From Escherichia phage kvi, in the sequence record MN850615.1: a stretch of 64,000 nt of DNA; one strand, written 5' to 3'. Positions 2-28,949 of the stretch are shown here, piece after piece. The stretch's first letter is position 1. Every line of letters starts with the position of its first letter. Position numbers and translations under genes: made by a program. A model generated the notes under the pieces. The model saw nothing but the letters and a program-made list of their open reading frames with translations, had not been told where the DNA came from and made no database searches.

Positions 2-1600
2 ATGAAAACTACCAAAGAACTGATGGAAAAATGGTCCCCGCTGCTGGAGAACGAAAAACTGCCGGAAATCGCAACTGCGTCTAAGCAGAAACTGGTTGCT
101 AAAATTCTGGAATCTCAGGAAGCGGATTTTGCTGTAGACCCGATCTATAAGGATGAAAAAGTTGTTGAAGCATTCGGTGGCTTTATCGCAGAAGCCGAAG
201 TTGCTGGCGACCACGGTTATGACGCATCTCAGATCGCGGCTGGTCAGACTACTGGTGCAATCACTAACGTAGGTCCGGCTGTTATCGGTATGGTTCGCCG
301 TGCTATTCCTAACCTGATCGCATTTGATATTTGTGGCGTTCAGCCGATGAGCACTCCGACTAGCCAGATCTTTGCAATCCGTTCTGTATACGGTCCAGAT
401 CCGCTGGCAGGTGGCAATGCTCAGAATGTTCGTGAAGCATTCCATCCGATGTATGCACCTGATGCATTCCATAGCTCTCTTGCTGCTAAAGGTGCAACTG
501 TAGGTTCTCCGACCGGGACTCCGTTTGCTAAACTAACTATCAATACTCAGATTGATGCAGGTGATATTGTACACCACACCTTCGCAGAAACTGGCATTGC
601 ATATCTGCAAAACGTTACCGCAGGACAAGTAACCCCGACCAAATCTGGCAGCGAGTCAGATGATGAAGTTGTCATGAAGCTGATTGAAGAAGGTAAACTG
701 GCTGAAATCGCTTTCGGTATGGCTACCTCTATCGCTGAAATTCAGGAAGGCTTTAATGGTTCAACTGGAAACCCGTGGGCTGAAATGTCAATGCGTATTG
801 ACAAACAGGTTGTTGAAGCGAAATCTCGCCAACTGAAAGCTCGTTATTCTATCGAAGTTGCGCAGGATCTGCGTGCTGTACACGGTATGGATGCTGACGC
901 TGAACTGAATGCTATCCTGGCTAACGAAGTTCTGCTGGAAATCAACCGTGAAATCGTTGACGTGATCAACTTTACCGCTCAGGTTGGTAAGACTGGTATG
1001 ACTCAGACCGTTGGTTCTAAAGCTGGTGTATTTGACCTGCAAGACCCGATCGATACTCGCGGTGCTCGTTGGGCTGGTGAATCCTTCAAATCTCTGATCT
1101 ACCAGATCGACAAAGAAGCTGCTGAAATCGCTCGTCAGACTGGTCGCGGTGCTGGTAACTTTGTTATCGCTTCCCGTAACGTTGTAAACATTCTGGCTTC
1201 TGCTGATCAGGGTATCAGTCTTGCTATGCAGGGTGCTGCAAAAGGTCTGAATACCGACACCACTAAAGCTGTTTTCGCTGGTGTTCTGGCTGGTAAGTAC
1301 AAAGTGTTCATCGACCAGTATGCTCGTCAAGACTACTTCACCGTAGGTTACAAAGGCGACAACGAAATGGATGCTGGTATCTACTATGCTCCGTATGTTG
1401 CTCTGACTCCGCTGCGTGCAACTGATCCGCAGTCTTTCCACCCGGTTCTGGGCTTCAAGACTCGCTACGGCATCGGTATTAACCCGTTTGCAGACAGCAA
1501 ATCCCAGGCACCGTCCGCTCGCATCACCTCCGGTATGTTGAGCAAAGACAGCGTAGGTAAAAACGCATACTTCCGTCGTGTATGGGTTAAAGGTTGCTAA
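2..1600 (+). CDS. 23: Major capsid protein gp23
   Basis: 532 aa; recalled T4 gp23 matches along the whole length (PEIA, GDHGY, AIPNLIAFDICGVQPM, NAYFRRV.VKG); ATG at 2. Confidence 0.95.
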   Translation: MKTTKELMEKWSPLLENEKLPEIATASKQKLVAKILESQEADFAVDPIYKDEKVVEAFGGFIAEAEVAGDHGYDASQIAAGQTTGAITNVGPAVIGMVRRAIPNLIAFDICGVQPMSTPTSQIFAIRSVYGPDPLAGGNAQNVREAFHPMYAPDAFHSSLAAKGATVGSPTGTPFAKLTINTQIDAGDIVHHTFAETGIAYLQNVTAGQVTPTKSGSESDDEVVMKLIEEGKLAEIAFGMATSIAEIQEGFNGSTGNPWAEMSMRIDKQVVEAKSRQLKARYSIEVAQDLRAVHGMDADAELNAILANEVLLEINREIVDVINFTAQVGKTGMTQTVGSKAGVFDLQDPIDTRGARWAGESFKSLIYQIDKEAAEIARQTGRGAGNFVIASRNVVNILASADQGISLAMQGAAKGLNTDTTKAVFAGVLAGKYKVFIDQYARQDYFTVGYKGDNEMDAGIYYAPYVALTPLRATDPQSFHPVLGFKTRYGIGINPFADSKSQAPSARITSGMLSKDSVGKNAYFRRVWVKGC

Positions 1601-19122: not shown

Positions 19123-21174
19123 TTACATTTTAAATTTATCTGGCATTGCGTCTACAGATACCAGATCAGCGATAAGCTGACGTAGAGTTGCCTTATCTGC
19201 TTTCTTACGTTCGGTTTTAGCTTCGCTAATGAAGCTGGAGAAAGACAGGTCAGAAGCAGGTTTAACAACACCTTCACGGATGAATGCATCACCGTCCGCG
19301 ATCATCTCGCCAGATTCTTGTAATGCTGCCAGTTCATTTTTGTTCATAATATGTGCCTCAATGTAATAAGTTTCTTGTGAATCCGTCGATGCCGTAGCAC
19401 GAGTTACCGTATCAAAGGATAACACAACACCGCGAGGAAGTAAAATCTCGCATTCTTTGTAAGCAAATGCTTTGTTACCTACTGGCAAGACAGGGATGTT
19501 TTCCGCGCCAGCAATGGAGAAAGCAACATTAGCGCCACCTTCACCACGAGAGCCAGCCATAGAATCAACACCAGCAACGGCACTAGCCACGTTTGCATTC
19601 CAGCCGCCAAAAATGTTAGGTGCAAGGGAAGTGCTCACATAGTTTTTAAAGTAAAACGCTTTTTGCTTACGTGCAGTTTCCCACATTTGCGACCGGAAGT
19701 CCATACCACGATACAGAATAGTACCCGGATCAAGTTTAACTCCATAGTTGGAGAAGGCATTATCCAGTGCATCACACATCTTGACCAATTCTTCTGGATC
19801 TGCGATGCCTTCAAACTCTTCCAGCTTACGGTCGGTTAGGAAGTTGTTCATATTGATGTATGCTGCATCGGCATATTCGCTCAACACAAAACCTTCCGCG
19901 CCCGGCAGATCAAGATCAATATCTGCCATCATTTCACCCATGTTGCTAGCAATTGCTTCAAACATACCGGAAGCAACATTACGTAGGGCATCGGTTTTAA
20001 TCTGGGTGATGTGACTACGCAGCATTTCAGCTTTTACATCTGCTGGCATAGACTGGTCTACTCGATCCATTGCCAGGGCGGTGATCTTGTTTTCGAATAC
20101 TTCCTCGCTCATGATTTCTTTTAAGCGTTTGATTGATGCTGCGATAACTTCCGCAGACAATGGATCATATTGATCCTGAACTTTTACCAGTTCGCTTACT
20201 GCGTATTTTGCATCGGCTTCGCTTTCAAAAATAGTACGCATGAAACCATAGCGAGTGATAATATCACTTGTCCAGTCATTCAGAGAACGAGCGGTTGAAC
20301 GTTCTAAGGCTTGACGGTCAATCAGAGTATTAAACTGTTTCTTAGGTTCTGCTTCGGTGATATCTTCTTCCGGTTTAAGATTAATTTTTTCTGGATGATT
20401 CACATAGTCGCTGTTATAGGTCGCTTGAGTTTTCAGCATTTCTTCTTTAGTCAAACGAGATTTAGCCGCTACGCGTTGTTCTGCTTCCGCGTTTCGTTCT
20501 TCTTCTGACACAAGACTAGCCGCATATGCCTCATCTTTAGTCAGAGATTCACCAGTAGCCTTAGATACCCAGCGATCACCTAAATCACTTTCTACTTTAG
20601 TGAACAAGGATTCATCAAGTTTAATCCCTTTAATCTTATCAATCGCCATCCCGCGACGCTTGACAACAACTAAAGCGATCTTTTTGCTGGTCATTACTTC
20701 CTGCTGGAATACTTCAAACTTCGGTGTACGACGCACCAAACGCTCTATAACGCGCTTAACCAGTTCGGTCTTACCTTTCATGCGGGATACGTTAAAACGG
20801 AACATAACAGCGTCTAATTGCGCTTTACGGGCTGTTTCCATAACCACATCAAAAGCACTTGACATAACTGCAATCGGGTTATCGCCTAGACCATTTTTAA
20901 GCTGTACAATACGACCGCTTTTGTTCATTTCGCACAGTACAACATGTGCGGTCTTGTCACCCATACGAATGATTTTAGGTGTTTTGTTGGTGAAGTTACA
21001 AAGACGGACAATCACATCTTTATCGCGTGTCTGTACTGCAAAAAGCTGTTTAGGATTCTGCTTAGGCTTTAAGCACTGTACCGGAGCAATACTGCCAAAG
21101 TTTTCTTCCTCTTCCGTCAACAGCCATTTCTCGAAAGATTCAATCATTAGATCGTCGATTTCTAAGTTAAACAT
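19123..21174 (-). CDS. alt: Alt ADP-ribosyltransferase
   Basis: 683 aa (T4 Alt 682 aa); ILYRGMD, YVSTSLAPNIFGG, ECEILLPRG. Confidence 0.9.
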   Translation of the reverse strand: MFNLEIDDLMIESFEKWLLTEEEENFGSIAPVQCLKPKQNPKQLFAVQTRDKDVIVRLCNFTNKTPKIIRMGDKTAHVVLCEMNKSGRIVQLKNGLGDNPIAVMSSAFDVVMETARKAQLDAVMFRFNVSRMKGKTELVKRVIERLVRRTPKFEVFQQEVMTSKKIALVVVKRRGMAIDKIKGIKLDESLFTKVESDLGDRWVSKATGESLTKDEAYAASLVSEEERNAEAEQRVAAKSRLTKEEMLKTQATYNSDYVNHPEKINLKPEEDITEAEPKKQFNTLIDRQALERSTARSLNDWTSDIITRYGFMRTIFESEADAKYAVSELVKVQDQYDPLSAEVIAASIKRLKEIMSEEVFENKITALAMDRVDQSMPADVKAEMLRSHITQIKTDALRNVASGMFEAIASNMGEMMADIDLDLPGAEGFVLSEYADAAYINMNNFLTDRKLEEFEGIADPEELVKMCDALDNAFSNYGVKLDPGTILYRGMDFRSQMWETARKQKAFYFKNYVSTSLAPNIFGGWNANVASAVAGVDSMAGSRGEGGANVAFSIAGAENIPVLPVGNKAFAYKECEILLPRGVVLSFDTVTRATASTDSQETYYIEAHIMNKNELAALQESGEMIADGDAFIREGVVKPASDLSFSSFISEAKTERKKADKATLRQLIADLVSVDAMPDKFKM

Positions 21175-21525: not shown

Positions 21526-21690
21526 TTAGAACATTTTTGAAATTAATTCTGCTTTGATTTCGCAGAGAACATCTAAAGATTTCTCGTCACCCGCTTTTGC
21601 TGCTTCTGCTTGCATTTTTGAAATGGCTTCAATGTCAGTGCAATTATAAGCCGCTTGAACTTTAGCGATTGCGATGATTAAGTGTTTCAT
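21526..21690 (-). CDS. Hypothetical small protein (54 aa)
   Basis: Not in track; AGGAGA SD; immediately downstream of promoter at 21723. Confidence 0.4.
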   Translation of the reverse strand: MKHLIIAIAKVQAAYNCTDIEAISKMQAEAAKAGDEKSLDVLCEIKAELISKMF

Positions 21691-21722
21691 GTTTGATTCT
21701 CCTTTCGTTTCGGTATGTGTGC

Positions 21723-21752
21723 ATTATGGGGGATCACCGATCCCCCTGTCAA
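21723..21752 (-). promoter_or_regulatory. Early promoter with palindromic spacer (PeSL-like)
   Basis: TTGACA-GGGGGATCGGTGATCCCC-CATAAT on - strand. Confidence 0.65.
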
Positions 21753-21759
21753 CAATTTT

Positions 21760-22278
21760 TTAGTTATTTTTTAATTGCTCATCTTGCAATAGGGCAATCA
21801 CATGCTGGCGATGTTCTTCCGATTGAGGCACACCGAAAAAGTTTGTTTTGTAGAAATACTCTAATCGGTCTTCTCGTGTGCTCTCTTCCATCATGATCGC
21901 GGGTAGTCCGAGATTTCTGAAACGTCGCTTTTCTGCTGGCGTAAAATCACTGTAATACAACATAGAATCATCATTACAAGCAATGCTAAACTCATCATTC
22001 ATAAAGGAGAATATTGCGTTTAAACGCTGTTTACCGTCCACGATTTCGATCTCATAGCGAGAGCCATCATCAATCTTAGCCATTGCGATAGCACCAACCG
22101 GAAAATCATTAATAAGGTTTTCGATAAACATACGTTTGTTTTCGGTGTCCCATACTAAAGGACGCTGATAATCTGGGTTCATGTTGATATAGCCATCTTC
22201 TAACCATGCATCATAAACAGAGATGACAAAGTTTTTAGTATTGGTATAGTAACGGCGTTTAGGCGTTAAACGGTTCAT
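21760..22278 (-). CDS. DUF262 / ParB-like (GmrSD N-terminal-type) domain protein
   Basis: 172 aa from ATG 22278; PDYQRPLVW and IVDGKQRLNAI match DUF262 signature; no nuclease domain. Confidence 0.6.
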   Translation of the reverse strand: MNRLTPKRRYYTNTKNFVISVYDAWLEDGYINMNPDYQRPLVWDTENKRMFIENLINDFPVGAIAMAKIDDGSRYEIEIVDGKQRLNAIFSFMNDEFSIACNDDSMLYYSDFTPAEKRRFRNLGLPAIMMEESTREDRLEYFYKTNFFGVPQSEEHRQHVIALLQDEQLKNN

Positions 22279-22279
22279 G

Positions 22280-22612
22280 TTATAGTCTCCTGAATGGATC
22301 ATCACGTAAATCAATATCTTTTAAGAACTCATCCCATGAATGCCGGATATTGTTCTTAATTCTCCAGATAAGCGCAGGGATTGAACGCTCTCCCATCTGG
22401 AAGTATGGATCATATGATCCGTATGCCCAATATGCTACTACAATTCCACAATCAGCGCAATAGTATTCTATTTCACTGGCTGGCGACCAAAGTCCATCAA
22501 TATGATCGGTGATCTTGCTTTCGATGTTATGGCTATGACAATCAGGGCAACGGATGCAATGACCTTGTTTATCGTAATTTGACGTTAGCGAATACTTAAA
22601 CAATCTCATCAT
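22280..22612 (-). CDS. Zinc-ribbon protein
   Basis: 110 aa; CIRCPDC ... CADCG; ATGATGA overlap with upstream gene. Confidence 0.55.
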   Translation of the reverse strand: MMRLFKYSLTSNYDKQGHCIRCPDCHSHNIESKITDHIDGLWSPASEIEYYCADCGIVVAYWAYGSYDPYFQMGERSIPALIWRIKNNIRHSWDEFLKDIDLRDDPFRRL

Positions 22613-23325
22613 AGATCCTTATTTGCTTCAAATACTGCCTTTGCGAATCCTCGCGGGGTAAGTGACCTGATAGTCTTTGTTTTCGTTCCTTTCCCGCCTA
22701 GCTTAGAATGCTGTTTACTGTACCCTTTATTAATCTGCAACGGTTTCTTTTCTGGCATTATAAAGCCTTGTCCGGTCCATAAGCAAGTCTTTTTCGGGTA
22801 CATATCACGGGCGGCGATATACTCAGGAAAAGTAGGATGTTTATCATCTTCCGGCAAATAACCGCCATATTCCCACGGGTGGAACATGTAATCAGGCTTA
22901 CGCCACATGCTAGAGATAACGCTTACAGGATTCTCTATCATGTAGGGAACTCCTAGCCATTCACCCAAATAAGCGGTTATTTTAGCTGCCCTTACATCAT
23001 GAACTTGAATCAATGGTCCTTGTTCTCGTTTCTTTCGTTCAAAGTGTGCAGCGCCACTAACAGCTAAATTGGTGCACGGTGGGAATGCAAAGATAATATC
23101 CGGTTTCCCCCATTCAAGGTCCATTGCTCTTTCCAGCCAGTTCAAATCAATCCAGGTGTTTACATAGGTAATGTTTGGATGTTCAAATCTGGTATTATAC
23201 TTTTTGTATGTGCCGTGGTCGCCATCATCAGCATTAAAGCAGATCACCTTATGACCTGCTTTAGCCCATTCTAGCCCCATTATCCCCGATCCGTCAAAGT
23301 TACAGAATATTAATTTTTGTTTCAT
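22609..23325 (-). CDS. Compact DNA C5-cytosine methyltransferase-like protein
   Basis: 238 aa; motif I FCNFDGSG, motif IV FPPCTN, motif VI MIENPV, C-terminal RSLTPRGFAKAV; very short variable region. Confidence 0.6.
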   Translation of the reverse strand: MKQKLIFCNFDGSGIMGLEWAKAGHKVICFNADDGDHGTYKKYNTRFEHPNITYVNTWIDLNWLERAMDLEWGKPDIIFAFPPCTNLAVSGAAHFERKKREQGPLIQVHDVRAAKITAYLGEWLGVPYMIENPVSVISSMWRKPDYMFHPWEYGGYLPEDDKHPTFPEYIAARDMYPKKTCLWTGQGFIMPEKKPLQINKGYSKQHSKLGGKGTKTKTIRSLTPRGFAKAVFEANKDL

Positions 23326-23567
23326 ATACGCCCCTTTAATCCAACACAGATTTTAGAAGGTTCTTTGCCGTGCCACATTAAGTAAAGTCCGTTAATGCGG
23401 CCTTGTTTTGTATATGATTCTTTTCTGATCTTCTTATAGTGTCGTGTTTCCTCAACTGATTGTTTAGAATACCAATCATAAAGGAAGAGGCACAAAGGCC
23501 AACCATTAGCGGCCTTAATGCAGTTATTAAGAAATTCCTTATTGCGTTTAATTAATTTTCTTTTCAC
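23322..23567 (-). CDS. Hypothetical protein (GTG start, translationally coupled)
   Basis: 81 aa; GTGA overlap with upstream stop. Confidence 0.4.
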   Translation of the reverse strand: MKRKLIKRNKEFLNNCIKAANGWPLCLFLYDWYSKQSVEETRHYKKIRKESYTKQGRINGLYLMWHGKEPSKICVGLKGRI

Positions 23568-23815
23568 GCTGCCCCCATTGGTTTGATAGTAACAGAATCT
23601 AAAAGACCTTTGTTAGCCAGTTCGCGGCAAGTTTTCAGATCCGCAACTTCCCAGCCAGCCGCAATCAGGTTATCAATGAGGCTGTTAGCAACTTCTTCGC
23701 TCATGAAAGAGCACTGTTTGCCGATGGTGTAGCGTACACGCTGTAATTTCAGTTTACGGAAGCCTTTAACGTTCAGGTCTTTAGCGATTTTCTTTGCGGT
23801 TTCGATGTTAGCCAT
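23564..23815 (-). CDS. Hypothetical protein (first gene of 5-gene operon)
   Basis: 83 aa; AGGAGA SD; preceded by promoter at 23856. Confidence 0.5.
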   Translation of the reverse strand: MANIETAKKIAKDLNVKGFRKLKLQRVRYTIGKQCSFMSEEVANSLIDNLIAAGWEVADLKTCRELANKGLLDSVTIKPMGAA

Positions 23816-23855: not shown

Positions 23856-23884
23856 ATTGTAGGGGAGTTATCCTCCCCTGTCAA
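23856..23884 (-). promoter_or_regulatory. Early promoter with palindromic spacer
   Basis: TTGACA-GGGGAGGATAACTCCCC-TACAAT. Confidence 0.6.
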
Positions 23885-27381: not shown

Positions 27382-27410
27382 ATTATAGGGGATCGGTGAT
27401 CCCCTGTCAA
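27382..27410 (-). promoter_or_regulatory. Early promoter with palindromic spacer
   Basis: TTGACA-GGGGATCACCGATCCCC-TATAAT. Confidence 0.65.
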
Positions 27411-28526: not shown

Positions 28527-28555
28527 AGTATAGGGGATCGGTGATCCCCTGTCAA
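28527..28555 (-). promoter_or_regulatory. Early promoter with palindromic spacer
   Basis: TTGACA-GGGGATCACCGATCCCC-TATACT. Confidence 0.6.
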
Positions 28556-28920: not shown

Positions 28921-28949
28921 AGTATAGGGGATCACCGATCCCCTGTCAA
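28921..28949 (-). promoter_or_regulatory. Early promoter with palindromic spacer
   Basis: TTGACA-GGGGATCGGTGATCCCC-TATACT (loop inverted relative to 28527 copy). Confidence 0.6.

Follow-up and report, generated by a model that had tools for sequence, protein, structure and literature searches.

Do genes that are read as a single run of overlapping frames also work as a single device, or are they only neighbours? The question is raised by five minus-strand open reading frames (ORFs), here called g1 to g5, which run from position 23815 down to 21760 of a 64,000-nucleotide stretch of Escherichia phage kvi (sequence record MN850615.1; the whole stretch is hereafter called the window). Three of them can be placed in families: (i) g3, a compact C5-cytosine methyltransferase; (ii) g4, a zinc-ribbon protein; and (iii) g5, a DUF262 protein without a nuclease. 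A sequence-only reading had proposed that these genes form a coupled anti-restriction or superinfection-exclusion module. Instead, comparative evidence shows what appear to be three independent accessory genes (g3, g4 and g5), and not a new anti-restriction machine. The explanation considered probable, although well short of certain, is that the locus is one early unit located between two promoter-early stem-loop (PeSL) cassettes, whose five translationally coupled accessory genes are neighbours by lineage history, g3 being an ordinary member of the compact Dcm-like group.

The operon is not new: records of it, with its domains annotated, go back to RB49. The relevance of the analysis lies elsewhere: a tempting but unsupported "new module" reading is removed, and RB49p189 (the RB49 counterpart of g3) is placed in a methyltransferase family whose consequence for immunity is known.

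Distribution of the gene families

Seventy-eight viral loci from outside the genus Krischvirus, each with a g3 homologue, were examined over 4 kb on each side. Relatives of g1, g2, g4 and g5 were found by tblastn at 0/78 of these loci; likewise, hidden Markov models of the g4 and g5 families, together with phmmer at E<=1, recovered a relative of the other four genes at 0/78. The partners, for their part, occur elsewhere among unrelated neighbours. Homologues of g5 are present in RB43 (ORF182c), KP27 (KP27_190), ST64B (Sb33), Salmonella lambdoid prophages and metagenomic phage contigs, and at none of those loci was an adjacent methyltransferase or zinc ribbon found. RB43 does encode a canonical C5 methylase, located 55 ORFs from its g5 homologue, and Klebsiella phage VLCpiM5b carries homologues of both g3 and g5, 94 kb apart (the single such case among the matches listed). 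Homologues of g4 are found in JenP1 and in 9g-like, Proteus and FelixO1-like phages, with unrelated small ORFs as neighbours. The linkage is, in consequence, observed in a single ~97%-identical lineage and provides no independent support for a module.

The claim of a module is also weakened from within that lineage. In phage kaaroe, g4 and g5 are separated by an inserted 59-aa ORF (MITPQLHGKEICDLTWEEL...; L003 2193-2372), which overlaps its neighbour by 4 nt at either end, in the same junction style; neither the window nor RB49 has it. In general, early clusters of this kind are built with overlapping starts and stops. An ORF of ~110 aa located upstream of the RB43 and KP27 homologues of g5 was considered as a diverged g4 and rejected, as it has no cysteines and no similarity.

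Family membership of g3, g4 and g5

The sequence-only reading described g3 as a compact C5-methyltransferase-like protein with motifs I, IV and VI and a C-terminal block, and these features are borne out in 26 homologues: (i) in motif I (FDGSG, residues 10-14), conservation of G12, S13 and G14 is 90% or more; (ii) in motif IV (PPCT, 82-85, with the nucleophile C84), P82-P83-C84 is invariant; (iii) motif VI (ENP, 131-133, with E131) is invariant; and (iv) the block IRSLTPRGF (219-227) is invariant or nearly so. A lysine pair, K178/K179, is conserved as well. The proposed Pfam check gave a divided answer. Against PF00145, g3 scores 14.4 bits (cut-off 22), the match covering only residues 10-100, in the N-terminal third, while the PADLOC model MTase_II reaches only 7e-4. 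Nevertheless, phrog_757 ("DNA methyltransferase") matches residues 1-237 at 2.1e-90, and the AlphaFold model (predicted local distance difference test, pLDDT, 89.8) has a fold closest to that of solved C5-methyltransferases and is DNMT3-like. Since the PF00145 match is below threshold, the methyltransferase call is based on the fold and on PHROG 757. A single-sequence search of the PDB with g3 found nothing and a profile search returned just M.HaeIII at E 0.63; these uninformative results made the fold comparison necessary. An NCBIfam search with all five operon proteins gave no hits.

As judged by its sequence and its modelled fold, g3 is a new member of a known family, that of the compact phage Dcm-like C5-cytosine methyltransferases. 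It is 53-65% identical to 25 homologues, and the family comprises more than 7300 proteins of ~230 aa. Relatives are present in 1521 of 50,697 phage records, that is, in ~3% of deposited phage genomes, including T1-like, Dhillonvirus, rV5-like and Webervirus phages, among others; in BASEL phage records, the homologues are labelled "Dcm-like C5 cytosine methyltransferase".

Compared with M.HhaI, M.HaeIII, E. coli Dcm and the DNMT3 catalytic domain, g3 is ~90 residues shorter. Unlike the PF00145 enzymes, it fails the gathering score and has no PDB match by sequence alone, and the segment at the position of the target-recognition domain (TRD) is, in the g3 family, the most conserved part rather than the most variable. 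This segment (g3 residues 145-192) is short, with a majority fraction of 0.78 vs 0.65-0.67 in the catalytic core. From the WRK block to the IX-like block there are ~70 residues, and no other part of the family is conserved as well; the target-recognition region, earlier described as almost missing, is thus reduced but not almost absent. Because the TRD-position segment is so well conserved, we infer that the compact Dcm family probably has one family-wide target.

A function is known for one member of the family. The Dcm protein of phage K42 (KarlJaspers-like, Drexlerviridae) is encoded by a 711-bp gene and has C82 as catalytic residue, together with E128, K175 and K176; it raises 5-methylcytosine (5mC) in the multicopy single-stranded DNA (msDNA) of retron Ec86, as seen by LC-MS (liquid chromatography coupled to mass spectrometry), and triggers Ec86, and Dcm is encoded by 34/35 Ec86-sensitive phages (bioRxiv 10.1101/2023.08.16.553469). 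To that extent the earlier reading is partly refuted on its own terms, in that g3 belongs to this already characterised phage Dcm family. Over its full length, a homologue of 236 aa encoded on a viral contig of 51.9 kb (L072) shares 55% identity with g3, and it has C82/E128/K175/K176; the g3 equivalents are C84/E131/K178/K179. K42 Dcm and g3 belong to the same length class (236 vs 238 aa) and share motifs I, IV and VI, IRSLTPRGF and a DNMT3-like predicted fold. But while the K42 gene is located in the replication region of a siphovirus, g3 is part of an early operon of a T4-type myovirus, and only in Krischvirus do a zinc ribbon and a DUF262 gene come after the methyltransferase. Since members of the family trigger Ec86, phages such as TB34, RB49, phi1 and JSE may be sensed by Ec86 hosts, for instance E. 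coli BL21; the Krischvirus phages concerned are used in therapy or as laboratory models.

How much DNA could g3 modify? The g3 proteins of phages TB34 and SAP are both 98.7% identical to that of the window. No modified nucleoside was detected in TB34 virion DNA by high-performance liquid chromatography-mass spectrometry (HPLC-MS), and purified TB34 DNA, which served as unmodified control, was not cut by BrxU in vitro (PMC13390438). These two results exclude bulk cytosine modification by g3 and are compatible with a sparse target. In the window, CCWGG sites number 26 (64-73 expected), so that methylation of all of them would amount to ~0.2% of cytosines. Other GC-rich short palindromes are also rarer than expected in the window (GGCC, 26 vs 72-107; CCSGG, 14 vs 32-43), and GATC is not depleted (356 observed vs 231-339 expected).

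The product of g4 carries cysteines C19/C22/C25 and C52/C55 in the pattern CxxCxxC...CxxC, and all five are invariant in three homologues of 39-43% identity (JenP1, Proteus phage), in agreement with the earlier zinc-ribbon call. The match to Pfam Zn_Ribbon_TF reaches 5.6e-4 and 19.8 bits (cut-off 29). Actually, RB49ORF188c was already noted as a zinc ribbon in 2006 (PMC1524935).

The product of g5 matches Pfam GmrSD_N (DUF262, PF03235) at 6.5e-20 and 72.5 bits (cut-off 33.2), the match spanning only profile positions 7-78 of 199. It contains the motifs YQRPLVW (37-43), DGKQR (81-85) and NFxGVPQSEEH; across homologues of 35-97% identity, Y37-Q38-R39, D81-G82-K83-Q84-R85 and G149-VPQSEEH (to H156) are invariant. 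The AlphaFold model (pLDDT 85.7) has a ParB-N/sulfiredoxin-like fold. Among defence-library models, the best are Menshen NsnA (3.4e-20) and PD-T4-2_A (PADLOC). The protein ends at residue 172, after DUF262, with no DUF1524/HNH nuclease domain and no other Pfam match. The description of g5 as a DUF262 protein with both signature motifs and without a nuclease is hence upheld, and for lack of DUF1524/HNH it is not a GmrSD enzyme. The long enzymes GmrSD, BrxU and SspE (DUF262 plus DUF1524/HNH) have, in contrast, a nuclease and insertions that g5 lacks, and proteins of the g5 type are encoded by phages and prophages. From the conserved QR and DGKQR motifs, g5 may be expected to bind nucleotide.

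The closest known group is formed by RB43 ORF182c, KP27_190, ST64B Sb33 and the Salmonella prophage proteins, which have 160-180 aa, full-length identities to g5 of 35-39% and the same invariant motifs; they differ in that no methyltransferase or zinc ribbon adjoins their genes. A word-seeded search found only nine homologous proteins, whereas profile and exhaustive searches revealed a far larger family, with 404 cluster representatives at E<=1e-10 in the exhaustive search. The best 150 of these 404 are mostly of 155-190 aa, or of 250-290 aa with the domain C-terminal, and PF03235 is the sole domain in all of the top 120 of the profile search. This short DUF262-only family is spread through T4-like phages and Salmonella prophages.

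The surroundings of these short DUF262 genes are varied. In Salmonella lambdoid prophages, the gene lies between recT and xis/int, and the early-left accessory order of Salmonella prophages and ST64B (L094 5001-5516, L091 3495-4010) is KilR, RecE, RecT, a 77-aa ORF, DUF262, ..., Nmad5, Exc and Int. In KP27, the gene after the g5 homologue, which it overlaps by 4 nt, encodes the 304-aa protein KP27_188 (L090 4004-4918), to which no function is assigned; at the matching position, RB43 has only a 41-aa ORF.

Competing explanations

In the favoured explanation, host RNA polymerase would read the unit from its PeSL promoter right after infection and stop at the next PeSL stem-loop, as the behaviour of such cassettes in related phages suggests (PMC2839356). 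Using S-adenosylmethionine, Cys84 and Glu131, g3 would most likely methylate cytosine at C5, by analogy with the K42 enzyme, at a sparse, family-wide target. A CCWGG-like sequence is the probable target, and the enzyme may accept DNA that is single-stranded or forms a hairpin. The likely benefit would be the protection of replicating phage DNA from cognate restriction, for instance by EcoRII-type enzymes in dcm-negative hosts; the cost, as in phage K42, would be that g3 acts as a trigger of retron Ec86. Meanwhile, g5 would be a minimal ParB/Srx (DUF262) domain without effector, acting on its own and belonging to a separate phage and prophage family, g4 a small zinc-ribbon protein, and g1 and g2 small lineage-restricted proteins.

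Several points weigh against this explanation. Regarding the independence of the genes, the order g3-g4-g5, with its overlaps, is kept in practically all Krischvirus genomes; an obligate complex would be expected to show co-transcription and translational coupling as well; and the missing co-occurrence elsewhere leaves room for an interaction that evolved within Krischvirus. Regarding g3, the contig-encoded homologue described above is equated with K42 Dcm because length and residue numbering agree, and not through an accession, and an activity of g3 is suggested solely by a homologue from outside Straboviridae. Furthermore, in the K42 study the CCWGG target of the phage family was assumed and not mapped (bioRxiv 10.1101/2023.08.16.553469), and the host Dcm of MG1655 does not trigger Ec86, so that the phage enzyme must differ from it in some property.

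The same linkage can be read as a "modify and shield" arrangement, in which methylation by g3 escapes Type I-III restriction and g5 (perhaps with g4) neutralises, as dominant-negative partner or decoy, the DUF262-type enzymes that would attack 5mC DNA (candidates being GmrSD/BrxU, SspE, Menshen NsnA and PD-T4-2). Co-transcription, translational coupling and the g3-g4-g5 order in ~56/58 Krischvirus records are in line with it, as is the fact that BrxU cleaves 5mC DNA and TB34 nevertheless plaques on BrxU hosts (PMC13390438). But purified TB34 DNA is unmodified and uncut by BrxU with g5 absent (PMC13390438), so that no protein shield is needed against BrxU, and TB34, a standard BREX-sensitive phage, remains sensitive to that system (PMC11341690). 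Added to the empty 78 methyltransferase loci, the g5 relatives of RB43, KP27, ST64B and the prophages without an adjacent methyltransferase, and the unrelated ORF of kaaroe, this makes the arrangement quite unlikely. A broader version, in which g5 and its RB43/KP27/ST64B-type relatives constitute a new anti-defence class that mimics the sensor/NTPase of GmrSD/BrxU, SspE, NsnA and PD-T4-2 and that is paired with g3 in Krischvirus, is very unlikely; if true, the pairing of g5 with g3 would let methylated phage DNA escape modification-dependent restriction in that genus. Unlikely too, if less strikingly so, is that g5 is an effector independent of g3, namely a stand-alone ParB/Srx enzyme that binds, nicks or cleaves DNA in an NTP-dependent manner, its target being the competing DNA of a superinfecting phage, of plasmids or of the host chromosome, or else a protein that regulates phage DNA transactions. 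For such a role, Osa, a plasmid protein, is the model. Invariance of Y37-R39, D81-R85 and G149-H156 in homologues of 35-97% identity is what a catalytic or ligand site would show, the family is large, with members that always end with the DUF262 domain, and the lambdoid prophage genes occupy an accessory stretch between recT and xis/int. Nevertheless, no activity can be inferred from sequence alone, there is no solved structure of any short DUF262 member, and in GmrSD, SspE and BrxU the DUF262 domain is the NTPase/sensor while a separate domain cuts.

A last alternative assigns to g3 a different chemistry: it would install another C5 group or start a post-replicative hypermodification and, in this way, explain the 5-hydroxymethylcytosine (5hmC) and glucosyl-5hmC reported for phage SAP. 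Actually, SAP and TB34 are reported to be 99.96% identical and yet to have fully modified cytosines in SAP and canonical ones in TB34, Krischvirus having no homologues of dCMP hydroxymethylase or glucosyltransferase (PMC13390438). Along the 6.4-kb locus, the two phages are set apart only by a tandemly duplicated segment of 79 bp and by four intergenic indels of one base each. The duplication (L004 2108-2186; window ~21690-21770), the sole large difference, covers the PeSL right after g5 and the 3' end of g5 and creates the annotated ORF SAP_052. The puzzle was considered as mapping to this operon and the idea was rejected, as the coding sequences are the same and the differences intergenic only. 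The alternative is extremely improbable: TB34 has the same g3 and canonical cytosines (PMC13390438), the SAP/TB34 differences at the locus are all intergenic, the homologous K42 Dcm yields 5mC (bioRxiv 10.1101/2023.08.16.553469), and family searches of the five proteins found no TET, glycosyltransferase or CmoA partner enzymes in the operon.

Anatomy of the unit and its genus context

The five minus-strand ORFs and their four junctions agree with the sequence-only reading, which had also proposed a single early promoter and translational coupling (Table 1). The stop/start junctions are GTGA (g1-g2), ATGA (g2-g3), ATGATGA (g3-g4) and TAA-c-ATG (g4-g5), and a purine-rich, Shine-Dalgarno-like stretch precedes all five starts. 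For g4, a second in-frame ATG at 22609, 3 nt further on, would give 109 aa. Inside the operon, neither the late-promoter sequence (TATAAATA) nor a properly spaced MotA box (middle promoter) was found, the sole other promoter-like site being a 10/12 match at 23297-23268.

Table 1. Genes and PeSL elements of the five-gene unit in the window.
Feature	Positions	Strand	Length	Description	RB49 gene	PHROG family
g1	23564..23815	minus	83 aa		RB49p190	phrog_14908
g2	23322..23567	minus	81 aa	GTG start	RB49p189.1	phrog_7065
g3	22609..23325	minus	238 aa	compact Dcm-like C5-cytosine methyltransferase (predicted)	RB49p189
g4	22280..22612	minus	110 aa	zinc-ribbon protein	RB49p188	phrog_2993
g5	21760..22278	minus	172 aa	minimal stand-alone DUF262 / ParB-Srx-fold protein	RB49p187
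Early sigma-70-type PeSL promoter	23856..23884	minus		TTGACA-17-TACAAT, 11/12 consensus matches
Next PeSL	21723..21752	minus		TTGACA, GGGGGATCGGTGATCCCCC stem-loop, CATAAT

PeSLs are cassettes of the hyperplastic regions of RB49 and phi1, where their stem-loops work as terminators and their promoters are very strong (Arbiol et al. 2010, PMC2839356). The two copies that flank the unit are PeSLs of that same phage group, with no difference found: both have a consensus sigma-70 promoter whose -35 and -10 hexamers enclose a G-run/C-run stem-loop, and both flank accessory ORFs in a hyperplastic region. In the upstream copy, the stem-loop GGGGAGG/CCTCCCC lies within the 17-nt spacer. The pattern TTGACAGGGG..CCCC has six matches in the window, with 0 expected. 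By analogy with RB49 and phi1, the two copies would be active as promoters and terminators, and the downstream one would be both the terminator of the five-gene unit and the promoter of the next gene.

The window belongs to a Krischvirus (RB49-like) phage. The region is 97-99% identical to RB49, phi1, JSE, GEC-3S, TB34, SAP and FL37, and ~50 further Krischvirus genomes match it at the same identity; in RB49, the corresponding genes have their place downstream of alt, which encodes an ADP-ribosyltransferase. The operon is present to at least 80% in 56 records, compared with 58 that carry the adjacent alt gene (>=95% identity), which makes it a stable feature of the genus. As the sequence-only reading noted, there is no T4 counterpart, and this is explained by the location of the operon in a PeSL-built hyperplastic region of an RB49-type phage (PMC2839356). 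The pN/pS values (ratio of nonsynonymous to synonymous polymorphism) relative to RB49 are 0.04-0.15 for g2 to g5 (0.15 for g2), and the g1 product is 100% identical to the RB49 protein; all five are, in consequence, maintained as genes under purifying selection. One related contig (L010) is devoid of g2.

Both g1 and g2 are lineage-restricted small proteins, whose sole family matches are PHROG families without an assigned function. With PADLOC, g1 gives a weak match (E 2.6e-5) to positions 722-785 of the 938-position model of RT_UG35, a defence reverse transcriptase; the matched part belongs to its C-terminal region.

Scanning the window for Rfam families and for tRNA genes gave no hits. Over the whole window, near-consensus sigma-70 promoters (TTGAC[AGT]-16..18-[TC]A[TC]AAT) number 19 on the minus strand vs 1 on the plus strand, and several of them carry G-run/C-run stems in the spacer. 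The spacer palindrome of the PeSLs occurs in both orientations, GGGGATCACCGATCCCC and GGGGATCGGTGATCCCC (21728-21752, 27388-27410, 28533-28555 and 28927-28949), which suggests inversion or recombination within PeSL stem-loops. Just downstream of the PeSL units there is an Alt-like ADP-ribosyltransferase gene (683 aa, 19123-21174), whose DNA is 100% identical to that of phage FL37, the closest relative of the window.

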